Assembly (NCBI GenBank): GCA_964389655.1
Contig: CAYMED010000022.1
Span: 1-28,198, forward strand
Reading direction: 5' to 3'
Source of the DNA: an uncultured Candidatus Poseidoniales archaeon
GTDB taxonomy: Archaea; Thermoplasmatota; Poseidoniia; Poseidoniales; CAYMED01
DNA: 28,198 bases
A program made the position numbers and the translations under genes. Below the pieces are notes generated by a model. That model had not been told where the DNA came from. It did not search any database and was given only the letters and a program-made list of their open reading frames with translations. Shown here piece after piece: positions 7,697-14,867 of the stretch (position 1 is its first letter; each line of letters begins with the position of its first letter).

Positions 7697-8839
7697 ATGG
7701 GGACTTGGGCTGCGAAGTATGCCCCAACTTTGTTTGAGGAAATTCATCCCTCTTCAATAAAAGACCGAGTCGTTAATGCTGTTATGAGTAATTCACCACC
7801 CCACATGCTTTTGAGTGGCCCAAGTGGGGTTGGAAAAACAACGTGTTGGCAATTAATTGCGAGGCAGGTCCTTGGCCCAGGGTGGAAAAATACAACACAT
7901 ATTTATCAAGCAAGAGATCGCTCAAGAACTCGCGGGGAAACTGCCGCATTTGAAAGATTCTTGCGGCCCGAAGGTGGCGACTCAAAGGATACATTGGCGG
8001 GAAGAATGAGCCTAGATTCATTTGACCGAGGGTTCATAGATTCTGAAGATGGGGTGCCCCCTGCTGGAATTGAAAGCATACCCCTAGGTCCAATTCACGG
8101 CATCCAACCAATCTCCAGAATACTTGTCATTGAAGATGCTGATTGCTTGGGGACACGGATCCAACCAATGCTCAGAAGAATTCTCGAAAACGAATCTTCA
8201 TCAACAAGGTTTATCCTAACTGCCCGGGCGCCGAGCAGAATTATCGATGCATTGCGGAGTAGGATGTTACATCTTCGATTCCCAACTACAAATGTAGTCA
8301 CTGTTCGGAATATTTTGGTCGATATATTGTCAAAAGAGGGATATTCACATAGTGAAGGGGTGATCGAAGATATTGCACATATTGCAAATGGAAATCTAAG
8401 AAAGGGGATTATGTTGATTGAAATTACAGCGCGTAGGGGATGGCTAACTAATCGAGATAAAATCCAAGATTACTTAGGAAGGCTATCTCCTAAAACTGCA
8501 AGAATTATTGTGGACTTGGCCTTGCGGGGAAAGACCCATGTTTGGTCAAAAAAGGAAAAAGGGGGATCAGTATTAAGTGGTGCAATGGGGCGAGTTGACG
8601 CCCTAATGAGGGAAGGGGGCTTGAAAGCAGATGAAGTGATCTTACGACTTCATAATGCAATTATATCCCCCAGCCTCCTGATTGATGATTCTTCGAGATC
8701 AAAAATGCTACTTGTGCTATCAAAAGGAGATGCTAGAATTCGCTCAACTAAATCCTCGAGGATTGAACTCGAAAGAATAATTATGTCATGGGCTAAAATT
8801 GGTACTTCCATCGGCTTAAATACACCAAATATGAATTAA
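7697..8839 (+). CDS. Replication factor C small subunit-like AAA+ protein (divergent)
   Basis: WAAKYAP (RFC box II), PHMLLSGPSGVGKTT Walker A, ILVIEDAD Walker B-like, LRRILE, RFIL, IIDALRSR, GNLRK sensor 2. Confidence 0.88.
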   Translation: MGTWAAKYAPTLFEEIHPSSIKDRVVNAVMSNSPPHMLLSGPSGVGKTTCWQLIARQVLGPGWKNTTHIYQARDRSRTRGETAAFERFLRPEGGDSKDTLAGRMSLDSFDRGFIDSEDGVPPAGIESIPLGPIHGIQPISRILVIEDADCLGTRIQPMLRRILENESSSTRFILTARAPSRIIDALRSRMLHLRFPTTNVVTVRNILVDILSKEGYSHSEGVIEDIAHIANGNLRKGIMLIEITARRGWLTNRDKIQDYLGRLSPKTARIIVDLALRGKTHVWSKKEKGGSVLSGAMGRVDALMREGGLKADEVILRLHNAIISPSLLIDDSSRSKMLLVLSKGDARIRSTKSSRIELERIIMSWAKIGTSIGLNTPNMN

Positions 8840-8971: not shown

Positions 8972-9580
8972 TTATAATTGTTGAATGGATTTGCAATGCT
9001 CGACGAAGTTTCTCATTATTTCTGATCCAAATTCAGAATCATTCACTTCTGGGTGAAATTGAACTCCGAAGCGCATACCATCTGATTTTTCCATGCCTTG
9101 GACGTGACAAGTTTCTGAAGTTGCAGTGATAACAAAATCATCTGGGACAACTGTAACTTCATCGTTGTGGGATTCCCAAACGATTTGTTCATTCGGCGTA
9201 CCACTAAATAAGATCCCACCGCCATTAATTAGGCTGATTTTCATTGCCCCAAACTCTGGATCTTGGGCTTCTTCTGCCTCCCCACCATAATGGCGAGCCA
9301 TGAATTGGTGGCCAGCACAGATTCCAAGAATTGGGATATTAAGAGAGAAATATTCAGTACAGTTTCCAAGTTCACCAGCAAGTCCAACGCGGGCAGCACC
9401 GCCTGAGAGAAGGAGACCATCAAGTGGCCGTAAATCATCAATTTGAGTATTATTTGGATGAATCTGCGTGTTTACTCCAAGATATCTAAGCATCCTCCAT
9501 TCCCTATGGGTCCATTGTCCCCCATTATCAATTACATCGATGCATAGAGGTTCAACGCCCAGTGGCTCACCCCTGATCAT
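8972..9580 (-). CDS. guaAA: GMP synthase (glutamine-hydrolysing) subunit A, class I glutamine amidotransferase
   Basis: IDNGGQWTH, LSGG, PILGICAGHQ (catalytic Cys), WESHNDEV, GVQFHPEV (His-Glu). The start is uncertain (ATG 9586 or 9580, or CTG 9562). The track start at 9808 is an off-frame reading of the upstream gene's repeat. Confidence 0.92.
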   Translation of the reverse strand: MIRGEPLGVEPLCIDVIDNGGQWTHREWRMLRYLGVNTQIHPNNTQIDDLRPLDGLLLSGGAARVGLAGELGNCTEYFSLNIPILGICAGHQFMARHYGGEAEEAQDPEFGAMKISLINGGGILFSGTPNEQIVWESHNDEVTVVPDDFVITATSETCHVQGMEKSDGMRFGVQFHPEVNDSEFGSEIMRNFVEHCKSIQQL

Positions 9581-10931
9581 ATTCATTCCGACGAGATGGG
9601 ACAGGTGGTCGCCCACCTGGGCCGGGTCCGGGTCCAGGTCCTCCAGGTCCTCCAGGTCCTCCAGGTCCTCCAGGTCCTCCTGGTCCTCTAGGCCCCCCTG
9701 GTCCTGGTCCTCTCGGTCCTGGTCCTCCAGGTCCTCCTTGTGGATAATTTGGATATTCTTCATCATCCCATTCATCCTCCCCCCATTCATCCTCCATCGA
9801 AAAGCCACCCGTTACTTGGTGATGGAGATAAGATATTTTCATGCTGTGTTCAAATCGTCCGACATGACTCCATGCCTCGACAAGAGTCGATCCAACTGCT
9901 ATTACGCCGTGTCCGCGTATTGCAACTAAACGCATATTTGATAATTCAAGAGCTTCTTTCAATTGCCGCATAAACTCATCCATGTCATCGTATGAGGGGT
10001 CAATAATTGCAACTTTAGGATAATCTCTTTTTCCAACAAAATCAACGGGTTCCAAGATATAGAGGCCTTCTGTAAGGGATGCTGCATCCGTGTATGGGGG
10101 ATAAACATGAATTGATGCTGCTGAGCCTTGAAATTCTAGGGATGAAAGAGCAAGTGCCACTTGATGAAGTTTCCAATCATCTGATGCGCCCTCTGGAATT
10201 GTGCCTCCAAGACGCCCATTTACAATGTCTTGGTCTGTAAGGCTAGACAGGGCACGGCCTTCTCTATTTGCGTGCATAACGCCTGGTTCCTCGGGATTCA
10301 ACATCGCAAGGCTTCCAACACCTGCATGCACCAACCCTTCCATATGCAACTGTCTCGCTAACCAAATAAAATGAGCAACGATATCCTTTGACAGAATAAA
10401 CCCATCCCCAACAAGAGGAGGGACGTCGGGGTGCGTTAATTCAGAAATCTGGGCAGATGATTCTACAAGTCCTTGGCGAAGAGATTCATTTTCTTTCTTA
10501 AGGCGACTGAGTTCAGATTCAGCTTCATTTAGGGGCGGTGATTGTAATGGAATCGGTTTGAGAATTCCAATGGGAGGATTCTGATCAACAAGTTGCTGAT
10601 GAGGAAGGGGTGTGGGGGCTATGGGCCCTGGATCGTTCATTGGGATTATTGGGGGGCCGGAAGGAGGTCCAGAGGGGGGAGTCGGATCAGAAGAGGGTTC
10701 TAATTCGGAAGAAGAGGCAGAGTTCCCATTGGATTCAACTGGCGGGATGGAAGATGGAGGATCCATGAATGCTTGCTGCATCATGTCATCTGTGGTCGTG
10801 ACTGGGTTCGCCACGGGTGGACCAGATGGTGGACCAGATGGTGGACCTTTAGGAGGGCCTGATGGGCCATTGTCGTCCTTAAAATCCTCAGTATCTTCAC
10901 CATCAATCTCGCCCTTCCCCTTCCGAGCCAT
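9567..10931 (-). CDS. Class II aldolase/adducin-domain protein with Pro-rich N-terminus, coiled coil, acidic Trp motif and Gly/Pro-repeat C-terminal tail
   Basis: ATG 10931 (MARKGKG...) is preceded by GAGGGGT. The core GLVHAGVGSL...ASDDWKLH...IHVYP...IRGHGVIAVGSTLVEAW...E matches the FucA/MtnB/adducin fold. The track start at 11021 overlaps tRNA-Asp. Confidence 0.82.
   Translation of the reverse strand: MARKGKGEIDGEDTEDFKDDNGPSGPPKGPPSGPPSGPPVANPVTTTDDMMQQAFMDPPSSIPPVESNGNSASSSELEPSSDPTPPSGPPSGPPIIPMNDPGPIAPTPLPHQQLVDQNPPIGILKPIPLQSPPLNEAESELSRLKKENESLRQGLVESSAQISELTHPDVPPLVGDGFILSKDIVAHFIWLARQLHMEGLVHAGVGSLAMLNPEEPGVMHANREGRALSSLTDQDIVNGRLGGTIPEGASDDWKLHQVALALSSLEFQGSAASIHVYPPYTDAASLTEGLYILEPVDFVGKRDYPKVAIIDPSYDDMDEFMRQLKEALELSNMRLVAIRGHGVIAVGSTLVEAWSHVGRFEHSMKISYLHHQVTGGFSMEDEWGEDEWDDEEYPNYPQGGPGGPGPRGPGPGGPRGPGGPGGPGGPGGPGGPGPGPGPGGRPPVPSRRNEYDQG
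9634..9687. repeat. 9-bp coding tandem repeat (CCAGGTCCT)x5 plus one variant, encoding GGP repeats on the minus strand
   Basis: Perfect units at 9634, 9643, 9652, 9661 and 9670, then CCTGGTCCT at 9679; degenerate units continue to ~9738. Confidence 0.93.
10816..10847. repeat. 12-bp coding tandem repeat GGTGGACCAGAT x2.7, encoding SGPP repeats on the minus strand
   Basis: Units at 10816 and 10828, and a partial unit at 10840. Confidence 0.85.
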
Positions 10932-10965
10932 GAGGATCCCTACCCCTCTCAAAAGGTGGTTCCGA

Positions 10966-10972
10966 TTAAATA
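10966..10972 (+). promoter_or_regulatory. Probable archaeal TATA box (TTAAATA) for tRNA-Asp, possibly shared with the divergent gene
   Basis: Lies 24-30 nt upstream of the tRNA 5' end (10996); reads TATTTAA on the minus strand, ~35 nt upstream of ATG 10931. Confidence 0.55.
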
Positions 10973-10995
10973 GAGGTGGTCGATCGACCCGATAA

Positions 10996-11068
10996 GCCCG
11001 CGTGGTGTAGTGGCCTATCATGCAGCCCTGTCGAGGCTGCGACCCGGGTTCAAATCCCGGCGCGGGCG
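10996..11068 (+). tRNA. tRNA-Asp (anticodon GTC)
   Basis: GCCCGCG...CGCGGGC-G acceptor stem, anticodon arm CAGCC-CT-GTC-GA-GGCTG, T-loop GGTTCAAATCC; followed by CC and TTTT. Confidence 0.96.
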
Positions 11069-11106
11069 CCTTTTGAGCAAAATTTCACTAGATGAGATCG
11101 TATGTA

Positions 11107-13127: not shown

Positions 13128-13190
13128 AAATATGAAATTTATTGCGATGACATGAAGCGAGGAGGGGGATTCGCGTCGTTTGGCGTCATC

Positions 13191-14867
13191 ATGGCTGGAC
13201 CTGCCAAAGTGGAATTCCCCGGGGATAAAAACCGCCAACAACAGTTGCGGGTGCGCAATGTTAAGCGCGCTTCAAGGGCCGTCCAAAAAAGAATTTCAAA
13301 AAGCCTTGAGGCTTTGATGAAGCATCCAAGAGATTCGATGCCTGATTTAGATGGAAATATTCCAAAGCGGCACGCAATTCGAAAATCGATAGGTAAAATA
13401 GACACAATACTGCAGCACCGTCAAGATCGTGCTTGGTTACAAAAAAGAATTTCCTCTAGAAAGTTCAAAGGAATTGAGAAGGCGTGGATTGGATCATTGG
13501 TGGCTGCACATGAAAATGATTTCAATACTGTAATGACCTTTTCACTCCCATTATACGGTTCTGCATCATATATTCGAAGAGGAGATGGACAGCCTGCAAA
13601 ACTTGTTGGGATACAACATCATGGAAACCCCATACTTCGCTTACTAGCATGGGAAGACTTTGCGAAGAAAGGACAATGGTTCTTTAGTTGGGATAAGGGG
13701 TTTACATGCACTGGAAGTTTACCCAATCCCCCTAATGAGTGGGTGTGGTCAATTGTGAAGTCTTCCCAAATAAATTTTGAATATGGTGATAATGAAAGTT
13801 TGTCTACAACCAAAGAGGGAGAAATAGAATTGTCGATAGGGGATGTAGATGTACGGCTAGGATTTAATGATCTAAGAGAGGGGGAAGGAGCGTTTGTACG
13901 ACACTTGGCTCAGCACATGATGCCCCCCATGCCAGGGAAATGTATCTCTGCAAAAATAGAATGGAAGCCAATAGGGTGGCCAACCGACCAAGATCTTCCC
14001 TTGATCGCACAGGAACGACTAGAAGGAGTTATTGAAAAATGGCTCAATTTAGAAATCGATGAAGGCGATGTTGAGGAATTAGCAAAAAATGCAGTGCTGA
14101 GTTTTATCGACCATGGATACTTGGTGGGAAAAAGGTGGTTCGATGATACAAATATCGACGGCGTGCTAAATGAATTAACTGGGAGTAATGGGGAAAGAGA
14201 TCTAGCCAATGCTGTTTTACAGGATATTGGGAAAGGAATACACGTTGTTGCAGCAAAAACAATGAATTTTATTGAACATGATGTGGTCCGAATTGAGGTT
14301 AAAACACTCAACGATTTACTTTCTGCTTTGTGGGATCAATGTAATTCATCAGTTCTTTCAGATGCATTTGGGATGGAAAGTGAACTCGCCGAGGGGGTGC
14401 ATGCTGCACAAGTGCAACGTGGAGAATCATTTGGGGCATTTCTTAGAAGAATCGAGGGAGTCATTACTAGTCACAACCTTGCTAAGCGGTTTCCAATTGA
14501 TCTAGAAAAATTAGCAGAACCAGTACGGGTCATCCATAGTTTAGCTTTGGATTCAATTGAAAGGGGAATCGGGCCGACAGTTAGTGCTGCGCGAAAGGTG
14601 AAAGGAGGGGTTCGTATTCGTGCCGCTGCATGGGCATGGCTCGTTGCTATTGAAAGGGAAAATGGGCAAGAATGGACTTTTGAGTCCGATGCAAGAGATC
14701 TAGGACAGGGATGGGCACAAATTGTTTCAAAACTTCGCGAAGCAAGTGAAGACCTCGCAAATGCAACTCAAGATGAAATCGAGAAGATGAAGAAAGATCA
14801 TTTGAAACTCCTAGAACACGTTACCAAAGCAACTGATTCAAAATGGTTGGACCCAACATTCAAATGA
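13191..14867 (+). CDS. Hypothetical soluble protein with a basic N-terminus
   Basis: Long ORF (558 aa from ATG 13191; 571 aa from ATG 13152), co-directional with dph5; no named family recognised. Confidence 0.8.
   Translation: MAGPAKVEFPGDKNRQQQLRVRNVKRASRAVQKRISKSLEALMKHPRDSMPDLDGNIPKRHAIRKSIGKIDTILQHRQDRAWLQKRISSRKFKGIEKAWIGSLVAAHENDFNTVMTFSLPLYGSASYIRRGDGQPAKLVGIQHHGNPILRLLAWEDFAKKGQWFFSWDKGFTCTGSLPNPPNEWVWSIVKSSQINFEYGDNESLSTTKEGEIELSIGDVDVRLGFNDLREGEGAFVRHLAQHMMPPMPGKCISAKIEWKPIGWPTDQDLPLIAQERLEGVIEKWLNLEIDEGDVEELAKNAVLSFIDHGYLVGKRWFDDTNIDGVLNELTGSNGERDLANAVLQDIGKGIHVVAAKTMNFIEHDVVRIEVKTLNDLLSALWDQCNSSVLSDAFGMESELAEGVHAAQVQRGESFGAFLRRIEGVITSHNLAKRFPIDLEKLAEPVRVIHSLALDSIERGIGPTVSAARKVKGGVRIRAAAWAWLVAIERENGQEWTFESDARDLGQGWAQIVSKLREASEDLANATQDEIEKMKKDHLKLLEHVTKATDSKWLDPTFK

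Follow-up and report, generated by a model that had tools for sequence, protein, structure and literature searches.

An archaeal class II aldolase-fold family, specific to Poseidoniales, and its probable turn from enzyme to scaffold with disordered arms

What might an archaeon do with a class II aldolase fold that has lost part of its active site and stands behind a long, proline-rich, acidic arm? The question is raised by a gene at positions 9567 to 10931, reverse strand, of the window, by which we mean the whole 28,198-nt stretch analysed here, contig CAYMED010000022.1 of assembly GCA_964389655.1 from an uncultured Candidatus Poseidoniales archaeon. Poseidoniales are among the most abundant planktonic archaea; they are uncultured and their cell biology is almost unknown. 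A first-pass annotation, made from the sequence alone, had described the product as a degenerate aldolase with disordered flanks, similar to the eukaryotic scaffold protein adducin, and on direct check all its statements about the sequence itself (coordinates, motifs and regions) proved correct. We consider it probable that the gene product serves in the cytoplasm as an assembly hub without catalytic activity, and that its core is a class II aldolase domain of FucA type whose active site has decayed. The family to which it belongs, here called the pseudo-aldolase family, gives the impression of an enzyme fold put to new use as a scaffold from which long disordered arms extend; a literature search found no paper on it.

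An aldolase fold whose catalytic positions vary freely

The 454-residue protein consists of a Pro-rich arm (residues 1-133), a leucine-zipper-like helix (134-166), a class II aldolase-fold domain (168-373) and a 76-residue tail (379-454). We built an AlphaFold2 model of it as a single chain, using a 23-sequence alignment. The Pro-rich low-complexity region that had been noted over the first 135 or so residues is indeed present, with a predicted local distance difference test (pLDDT) score of about 42-57 over residues 1-133. The short coiled coil that had been read from ESELSRLKKENESLRQGL falls within a confidently predicted helix, residues 134-166, and since the regular 3-4 hydrophobic repeat of this helix is kept across 58 orthologues, the coiled-coil call is justified.

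The fold of the domain is well supported. Pfam assigns it to Aldolase_II (PF00596) with an E value of 9.2e-14 (52.2 bits against a gathering cut-off of 22.2, model positions 4-182 of 183), AlphaFold2 renders residues 168-373 as an alpha/beta domain with block means of pLDDT between 86 and 98, mostly above 90, and the top structural match in Foldseek is Thermus FucA (2flf/2fk5; E 3e-13 for 2flf, template modelling (TM) score 0.83-0.86, root-mean-square deviation about 2 Å, 27% identity), with further matches to POD, TqaM and YgbL. Thermus thermophilus FucA is also the best match by sequence in the PDB (2fk5, E 6.6e-9). The protein thus belongs to the class II aldolase superfamily, as annotated; the nearest aldolase equivalog in NCBIfam, PRK08660, scores 62 bits against a cut-off of 203. 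A segment of the PPMPPxV type, VPPLV in the window protein, leads into the domain as two short strands packed on it. Querying the ESM Atlas with a homologue returned only clusters of the homologue's own family, labelled 'class II aldolase/adducin family protein'.

We used several sets of genomes and sequences to establish the range of the family. Of 41 genomes from the same order, 28 yielded one homologue apiece. When 301 Thermoplasmatota genomes were sampled, matches of at least 142 bits, which we count as strong, occurred in 49 of the 64 Poseidoniales, the window's own genome included, and in none of the 237 genomes outside the order, which yielded only seven weak matches (28-34 bits), in open frames of about 190-370 amino acids that look like ordinary aldolases. 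Among Poseidoniales genomes at least 85% complete, 109 of 166 carry the family: 94 of 102 in the Poseidoniaceae (coded f3) and 14 of 63 in the family that we take to be the Thalassarchaeaceae (f2), with the window protein representing a third family seen here, that of its own genome (f1). The gene occurs as a single copy; all Poseidoniaceae genera in the sample have it, and it is missing from genera g6, g7, g9, g10, g13, g144 and g145, whose genomes measure 1.3-1.6 Mb, and from g143. A HMMER scan of 1.84 billion representatives gave 14 clusters at 1e-30 or better, below which scores slide through fragments and a few divergent members to aldolases of 180-200 amino acids at about 60 bits or less. 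Judged by these searches, the family is confined to Poseidoniales (Marine Group II) and is an order-specific derivative of short FucA-type enzymes.

The layout of a long Pro-rich and acidic arm, then the zipper, then the domain is conserved throughout Poseidoniales. The window protein has all the hallmarks of this single-copy, Poseidoniales-only family (a Pro-rich/acidic arm, a zipper of four heptads, a PPMPPxV-type strand and an Aldolase_II domain with a characteristic Trp), and of the architecture that the first-pass annotation described, the arm, zipper and domain recur in every complete orthologue and the tail with its acidic-Trp and GGP elements only in the window's genus. The fusion does not stem from an assembly error, a reading we reject because the arm-zipper-domain arrangement recurs in more than 90 independent Poseidoniales assemblies; the tail too recurs, in a second genome of the genus (G001) and in one database representative (P0014).

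What has changed is the active site. Aligned with 2fk5, the window protein has ASDD for ASVE and HVY for HAH (10109-10101) and keeps RGHG, exactly as had been called, and it retains two of the three metal-binding His (H275, Y277, H341). The residues in place of Glu73, Asn29, Thr43-Gly44 and Ser71-Ser72 (E. coli FucA numbering, used throughout) are Asp252, Ser207, Glu224-Gly225 and Ser250-Asp251, and neither the Glu nor the phosphate site of a catalytic FucA is preserved. We then compared the same positions in 100 family members aligned with three canonical relatives. The first His (His92) is His in 97% of members; the second (His94) is His in 65%, Gln in 20% and Tyr in 5%, with Met, Ala, Pro, Phe and Asp also found, and the HxY change is therefore not a family trait; the third (His155) is His in 34%, the remainder having Asn, Lys, Arg, Met, Tyr, Gly or Gln. 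The Glu73 position holds Asp in 78% and Glu in 15%, Asn29 is Asn in 3% and Ser71 is Ser in 4%. The acidic residue together with all three His occurs in about 13% of members, and the divergent members P0013, P0016 and P0023 have lost the first His as well.

Ranking the 199 domain columns by entropy (median 1.06) places the former active-site positions at 146-197, among the most variable, with the Ser72 equivalent at 197. Near the old site only two positions are conserved. One is the first His, at rank 27; the other, at rank 17, is a Trp peculiar to the family that stands beside the former Glu (W253 here) and is found in 98% of members and in none of the three canonical enzymes. The domain therefore keeps its fold under strong constraint while its metal and sugar-phosphate positions vary freely across the family, which is the signature of a pseudoenzyme. 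The non-catalytic domain proposed by the first-pass annotation is accordingly very probable on alignment evidence, the metal- and phosphate-site positions being the least constrained in the family, although for the window protein alone the residues it retains make the case a little weaker than for the family. No back-up enzyme of this fold is apparent in genomes that bear the gene: of 41 related genomes, 28 have a protein above the Pfam cut-off for Aldolase_II, and in every one of these, as in the window's own genome, the pseudo-aldolase is the only such protein; a single further match, at a sub-threshold 15 bits, was seen in G034.

Arms, putative docking peptides and competing readings

As a hub, the protein would work as follows. 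The core would oligomerise, as characterised members of the superfamily are tetramers, and the zipper would reinforce the assembly; the adducin head, like all characterised members with this fold, is oligomeric (PMC12599920). The oligomer would display several long, extended, negatively charged arms, and a short conserved helical peptide on each arm (of the xMLDGAFG type, or DDMMQQAFMD here) would dock a partner. In the window's genus the hub would have gained a C-terminal arm as well, with an FtsY-like acidic-Trp motif and a Gly/Pro repeat.

The arms bear out the annotation's view of disordered flanks, being disordered in both structure models, that of the window protein and that of a Poseidoniaceae orthologue built from 58 sequences. 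Across orthologues they measure 68-402 residues (median 223); Pro and acidic residues each account for a median of 22% and basic residues for 4%, the net charge lies between -2 and -103 (median -42.5), and they keep this composition and a rough length, not their sequence. Such strongly negative arms fit spacers or bristles better than self-coacervation. In the window protein the arm contains two blocks of GPPxGPP type, the tandem repeat at residues 22-39 and PPSGPPSGPP at residues 85-94. Only two open reading frames (ORFs) of the genome have at least two GPPxGPP units, the other being a partial frame of 344 amino acids in the same genome (G000 C39:2-1033, reverse strand), in which a small N-terminal domain is followed by GGDLLGSFFGD and then by GPPGGPPMGQPPKDAPT repeats; its GGDLLGSFFGD resembles the tip peptide of the pseudo-aldolase family, and neither Pfam nor NCBIfam has a match for the frame.

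Within the otherwise variable arm, Poseidoniaceae show sharp conservation over roughly the first 35 residues, reading MAGKKTSAEQAREE...xMLDGAFGxLxGLE in 45 distinct full-length sequences. The orthologue model has a helix at residues 7-28 (pLDDT up to 83) and disorder over the rest of the arm, a prediction typical of a conditionally folding docking peptide. We group this 35-residue xMLDGAFG segment, EDEWGEDEWDDEE and DDMMQQAFMD as tip peptides; in the window's genus the variants are DDMMQQAFMD (the window protein) and DDLLHDAFM (a congener).

The tail is, as annotated, an acidic-Trp motif followed by a Gly/Pro repeat, and it is disordered in the AlphaFold2 model. It was found in G000 (the window's own genome), G001 and P0014 only, and each of the 90 further orthologous ORFs that we examined stops directly behind the domain, about five residues past its last helix. 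The acidic-Trp motif belongs to a class, [DE]2-W-x2-4-W-[DE]2, of which the genome has three occurrences against none in shuffled sequences, and two FtsY paralogues contain the other two, in their acidic A-domains; throughout the order, the A-domain of FtsY repeatedly bears acidic-Trp motifs. As a lead from motif matching, the tail may have acquired a docking motif already in use by FtsY. The paralogues (G000 C4:13609-14940, reverse strand, and C24:13063-14490, forward strand) have motifs of the DEEWDDWDDEE type, and beside each of them lie genes for a prefoldin subunit, a large S8 subtilase and a MamK-like protein, arranged alike on the two contigs, which reflects either a segment duplication or a bin that mixes two related genomes (contamination 5.72%). 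An idea that the acidic-Trp proteins form part of a MamK cluster was rejected, these being FtsY paralogues in the usual ftsY-pfdA arrangement. The Gly/Pro repeat is the only run of at least six G1-2P units in the genome; we rejected a collagen-like triple helix for it, as the Gly register is broken repeatedly.

Several observations weigh against the hub. The window protein keeps H275, H341, D252, S250 (the Ser71 equivalent) and G225 (the Gly44 equivalent), and the 13% or so of members with a whole triad make residual metal binding or catalysis possible in some lineages. The near-invariant first His and the Arg-Gly-x-Gly motif could reflect ligand binding instead of structure. In Thalassarchaeaceae the tip peptide is weakly conserved, with only M-F/Y-G remnants, and a genome-wide scan for the tip-peptide pattern gave 2 matches where 1.35 are expected by chance. 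The neighbourhoods of orthologous loci, made up of housekeeping genes, supplied no functional partner.

The first of these points lead to the strongest competing explanation, that the protein has remained an enzyme within the class II aldolase superfamily, whether aldolase, epimerase, dehydratase, decarboxylase or non-haem-iron oxygenase, which would work with altered ligands (His/Tyr/His/Asp) and use its arms solely for localisation. Besides the residues that the window protein retains, this explanation draws on the acidic residue at the Glu73 position in 93% of members, the nearly fixed first His and RGxG motif, the Fe-using enzymes and other chemistries found in the superfamily (as in the Foldseek matches POD, TqaM and YgbL) and the fact that the genome has no other member of the fold. 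However, a complete set of three His and an acidic residue is rare, the third ligand is Asn, Lys, Arg, Met, Tyr, Gly or Gln in 66% of members, the equivalents of Asn29, Ser71 and Ser72 are almost never kept and the active-site columns are among the most variable of the domain. We know of no active member of the superfamily that lacks the His triad, and regard a working enzyme as unlikely.

A more elaborate version of the non-catalytic hub would make it an independently evolved Poseidoniales device like adducin, in which a tetrameric dead aldolase core, clamped by zippers, sends out long polyproline-II/acidic arms whose conserved tip peptides, joined in the window's genus by an FtsY-type acidic-Trp motif, tether a cellular machine, the candidates being MamK-like actin filaments (absent from the same clade as the family), the signal recognition particle (SRP) and translocon, or translation GTPase systems. 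Taken with all its parts, this picture is unlikely.

A cytoskeletal adaptor in the narrower sense, with core or arms capping, bundling or anchoring filaments of MamK-family proteins (or FtsZ/CetZ), had been suggested by the first-pass annotation together with a condensate former. The genome does encode FtsZ/CetZ-like and MamK-family proteins (Table 1); of the latter there are three in G000, two in most other Poseidoniales and none in the streamlined Thalassarchaeaceae clade, and the presence of MamK-family actin-like genes agrees with that of the pseudo-aldolase in 23 of 24 cases when counted by genus and in 156 of 166 when counted by genome. The adducin head, moreover, which has the same fold, forms a tetramer without catalytic activity and binds the barbed ends of actin (PMC12599920). 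However, on a DnaK tree of 25 genomes the genera that lack both genes form one clade (one change; Shimodaira-Hasegawa-like approximate likelihood ratio test, SH-aLRT, 93); the tree covers five of these seven genera (g6, g7, g9, g10 and g13), g144, g145 and g143 not being included. With the absences confined to one clade, the MamK correlation comes down to a single streamlining event and has no statistical weight, and the same single loss implies that the family is dispensable. Genus g143 also breaks the pattern, having MamK-like genes and no pseudo-aldolase that we could find, the genes are unlinked, the structure of the domain resembles that of enzymes more closely than that of adducin, and the surfaces of MamK and eukaryotic actin are probably not conserved between the two. 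Since co-absence amounts to one event and the charge of the arms disfavours coacervation, neither the adaptor nor the condensate former has positive evidence in its favour, and we think the former quite improbable, keeping it as a minor lead. No paper was found that treats Poseidoniales together with MamK. A link to the archaellum was rejected, as g2, g4 and g15 have the family without archaellin and g13 has archaellin without the family. The DnaK/Hsp70 match of G000 (C1:27677-28721, reverse strand) is split over two frames with an in-frame TGA between them, which may point to a frameshift, an error in sequencing or a broken gene.

Could the partner instead be encoded next door? The gene overlaps guaAA, and the first-pass annotation had called it cotranscribed with a purine-synthesis gene; the protein might then act together with subunit A of GMP synthase or regulate it or, in a wider sense, purine metabolism. 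The overlap is real here, at 20 nt for a guaAA start at 9586 (14 nt for 9580), and since guaAA starts inside the last codons of the pseudo-aldolase, co-transcription at this locus is likely. In Thalassarchaeaceae a block of Trm5/Tyw2, tRNA-Asp, pseudo-aldolase, guaAA and an RFC-like gene is conserved, with guaAA on the same strand and adjoining at a gap of about 20-30 nt, and over all loci guaAA lies near the pseudo-aldolase in 56 of 92. However, this linkage is conserved only in f1 and f2: at most Poseidoniaceae loci guaAA is convergent (42 have it downstream and on the other strand, against 5 with both genes on one strand), and some loci have no adjacent guaAA. This convergent orientation rules out an operon as a family trait, and the tRNA-Asp/Trm5/guaAA/RFC-like block looks like inherited housekeeping synteny, which is how we interpret the linkage. 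Streamlined genomes, too, presumably need guaA for GMP, yet lack the pseudo-aldolase. A role in GMP synthesis is very unlikely.

Least likely of all, and hardly to be credited, is a mimic or competitor of the ribosomal stalk whose arm tip (MLGGAFG or GLFG type, preceded by acidic residues) recruits or sequesters translational GTPases: the aP1 of the genome (G000 C29:12272-12514, forward strand) ends in ...EEEEEEAGGFEGLGSLFG, an L-x-x-L-F-G tip whose L-x-x-[LA]-F-G spacing is shared by the family's tips xMLGGAFG, xMLDGAFG and GGSGLFG, and an oligomer with acidic flexible linkers and tip peptides is the design of the stalk, but the resemblance is limited to six residues, the motif is N-terminal or internal, not C-terminal, and the DDMMQQAFMD of G000 fits poorly.

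The gene and its surroundings

Coordinates are collected in Table 1. The longest ORF across the gene runs from 9567 to 11021 (reverse strand, 484 amino acids), and its first 30 codons cross a tRNA-Asp gene on the opposite strand, whose sequence mimics 'conserved' N-terminal residues in orthologous ORFs. With the tRNA lying inside the long ORF, the start is the ATG at 10931, as had been annotated, and the product has 454 residues. A TATA-box-like element upstream may, from its sequence and position, provide the gene with a promoter of its own. Over 9468-10995 there are also several antisense ORFs, all of them low-complexity shadows of the gene.

Table 1. Positions of the features discussed (in the window, unless a contig of genome G000 is named)
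Feature	Position	Strand	Basis or remark
tRNA-Asp (GTC), divergent neighbour upstream	10996..11070	+	synteny in 8 of the first 11 orthologous loci
TATA-box-like element TATTTAAT, 34-41 nt 5' of the ATG	10965..10972	-	read from sequence
Complete coding sequence, member of the Poseidoniales pseudo-aldolase family	9567..10931	-	454 aa plus TGA stop (9567-9569); ORF and translation, orthologues
Disordered N-terminal arm, residues 1-133; 25% Pro, net charge -11	10533..10931	-	pLDDT 42-57, composition
GPSGPPKGPPSGPPSGPP repeat block, residues 22-39	10815..10868	-	12-nt tandem repeat; TRF period 12, 100% matches at 10816-10847
Helical motif TDDMMQQAFMD, residues 47-57; counterpart of the Poseidoniaceae N-terminal xMLDGAFG peptide	10761..10793	-	DSSP helix 47-56, low pLDDT; motif scan of 92 orthologues
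Leucine-zipper-like coiled coil, residues 134-166; four heptads, Asn148 at an 'a' position	10434..10532	-	helix pLDDT 80-96; 3-4 periodicity in 58 sequences
Domain with class II aldolase fold, residues 168-373, together with the PPxV lead-in strand peculiar to the family	9813..10430	-	PF00596, pLDDT, Foldseek
S250-D251-D252, equivalent to FucA Ser71-Ser72-Glu73, followed by Trp253	10176..10184	-	2fk5 alignment, ASVE = ASDD
H275-V276-Y277, degenerate HxH metal motif	10101..10109	-	2fk5 alignment, HAH = HVY
His341, third metal ligand, in RGHG, kept in the window protein	9909..9911	-	2fk5 alignment, RGHG = RGHG; entropy rank 189 of 199
Acidic-Trp motif MEDEWGEDEWDDEEY, residues 379-393	9753..9797	-	within the family only in the window's genus
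Gly/Pro repeat, 42 residues, irregular GGP/GPG register	9612..9737	-	9-nt tandem repeat; TRF period 9, 12.3 copies at 9633-9737
guaAA-like class I glutamine amidotransferase	8972..9586	-	Pfam GATase, 1.2e-39
MamK-family actin-like proteins	G000 C15:58153-59175, C4:20006-21016, C24:8194-9198	+, +, -	317-358 bits to NF040964, below the cut-off of 400

Downstream, a GTG-started 'guaAA' ORF (8972-9808, reverse strand, 278 amino acids) is an artefact upstream of about 9586, and the (EDL)n run at its N-terminus is the Gly/Pro repeat of the pseudo-aldolase in another frame. The neighbours that recur at orthologous loci are an RFC-like AAA+ protein, an SdhA-like flavoprotein, a Rieske protein, a short-chain dehydrogenase/reductase and guaAA. 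The first of these is represented in the window by an RFC-small-subunit-like protein (7697-8839, forward strand) with only weak, partial Pfam matches, to the P-loop and the lid. In Thalassarchaeaceae it shows synteny with the block that holds the pseudo-aldolase, and it lies near the pseudo-aldolase in 58 of 92 loci. Further along the window, an ORF of 571 amino acids (13152-14867, forward strand) matched no Pfam family at E<=0.01. An analogy with the encapsulation peptides of bacterial microcompartments was dropped, as the linkers would be far too long and there were no shell genes in the conserved neighbourhoods examined.

Comparison with known systems

The closest relatives are the short FucA enzymes without a C-terminal helix (Thermus 2fk5/2flf; PRK08660), which have the same fold, give the best PDB and NCBIfam matches and share the P-x-D-x-x-G loop, the (R/K)GxG motif and a structural Glu. 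They differ in being single-domain proteins of about 190 residues with a full His triad, a Glu and an Asn/Ser phosphate site, whereas the pseudo-aldolase has 454 residues, an arm, a zipper and a tail, and its family conserves neither the triad nor the phosphate site. The automatic name 'class II aldolase/adducin family protein' is accordingly no evidence for fuculose or rhamnose catabolism or for methionine salvage in models of Marine Group II.

In overall design, by analogy, the protein can be set beside bacterial single-stranded DNA-binding protein (SSB), the ribosomal P-stalk (aP0/aP1) and FtsZ with its C-terminal linker and peptide, all of which combine an oligomeric folded base, a flexible linker of low complexity and variable length, and a short conserved peptide for docking at the distal end. 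In those systems the tips are C-terminal and the partners known, and they have no kinship with the pseudo-aldolase in sequence or fold. If the tip peptides do act in this way, they offer a handle for fishing out a cellular machine in Poseidoniales.

To our knowledge, metazoan adducin is the only described case in which the class II aldolase fold has switched to a scaffold. The analogy drawn by the first-pass annotation is apt as far as the non-enzymatic use of the fold goes, while the domain itself is nearer to short FucA. Foldseek did match the adducin chains of the spectrin-actin junction complex (8iai/8iah), at target-normalised TM scores of 0.46-0.62 against 0.83-0.86 for Thermus FucA, and sequence searches of the PDB and, with HMMER, of the 1.84 billion representatives returned no adducin among their matches. 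Like the head of adducin/Hts (ALDO-DOM; 8iai/8iah; PMC12599920), the pseudo-aldolase has an aldolase fold without the His triad, long disordered regions and a probable use as an interaction module in what would be an oligomer. Adducin, however, is metazoan and descends from class IIa enzymes, which have a long C-terminal helix, whereas the pseudo-aldolase descends from a short FucA-type ancestor; and the order of parts is reversed, adducin running from an N-terminal head through a neck to a basic MARCKS-like tail and the pseudo-aldolase, in whose sequence there is no MARCKS-like segment, from an acidic N-terminal arm through a zipper to a C-terminal domain. With the lower TM scores for adducin, short FucA as nearest relative and the reversed topology, we conclude that the resemblance is convergent and not orthologous. 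For adducin, the switch from aldolase to scaffold is placed in early animals (PMC12599920). The Poseidoniales family, if our reading is true, would be the first such switch in a prokaryote and independent of adducin, and this second, archaeal origin would provide a natural experiment on how a class II aldolase tetramer becomes an interaction platform.

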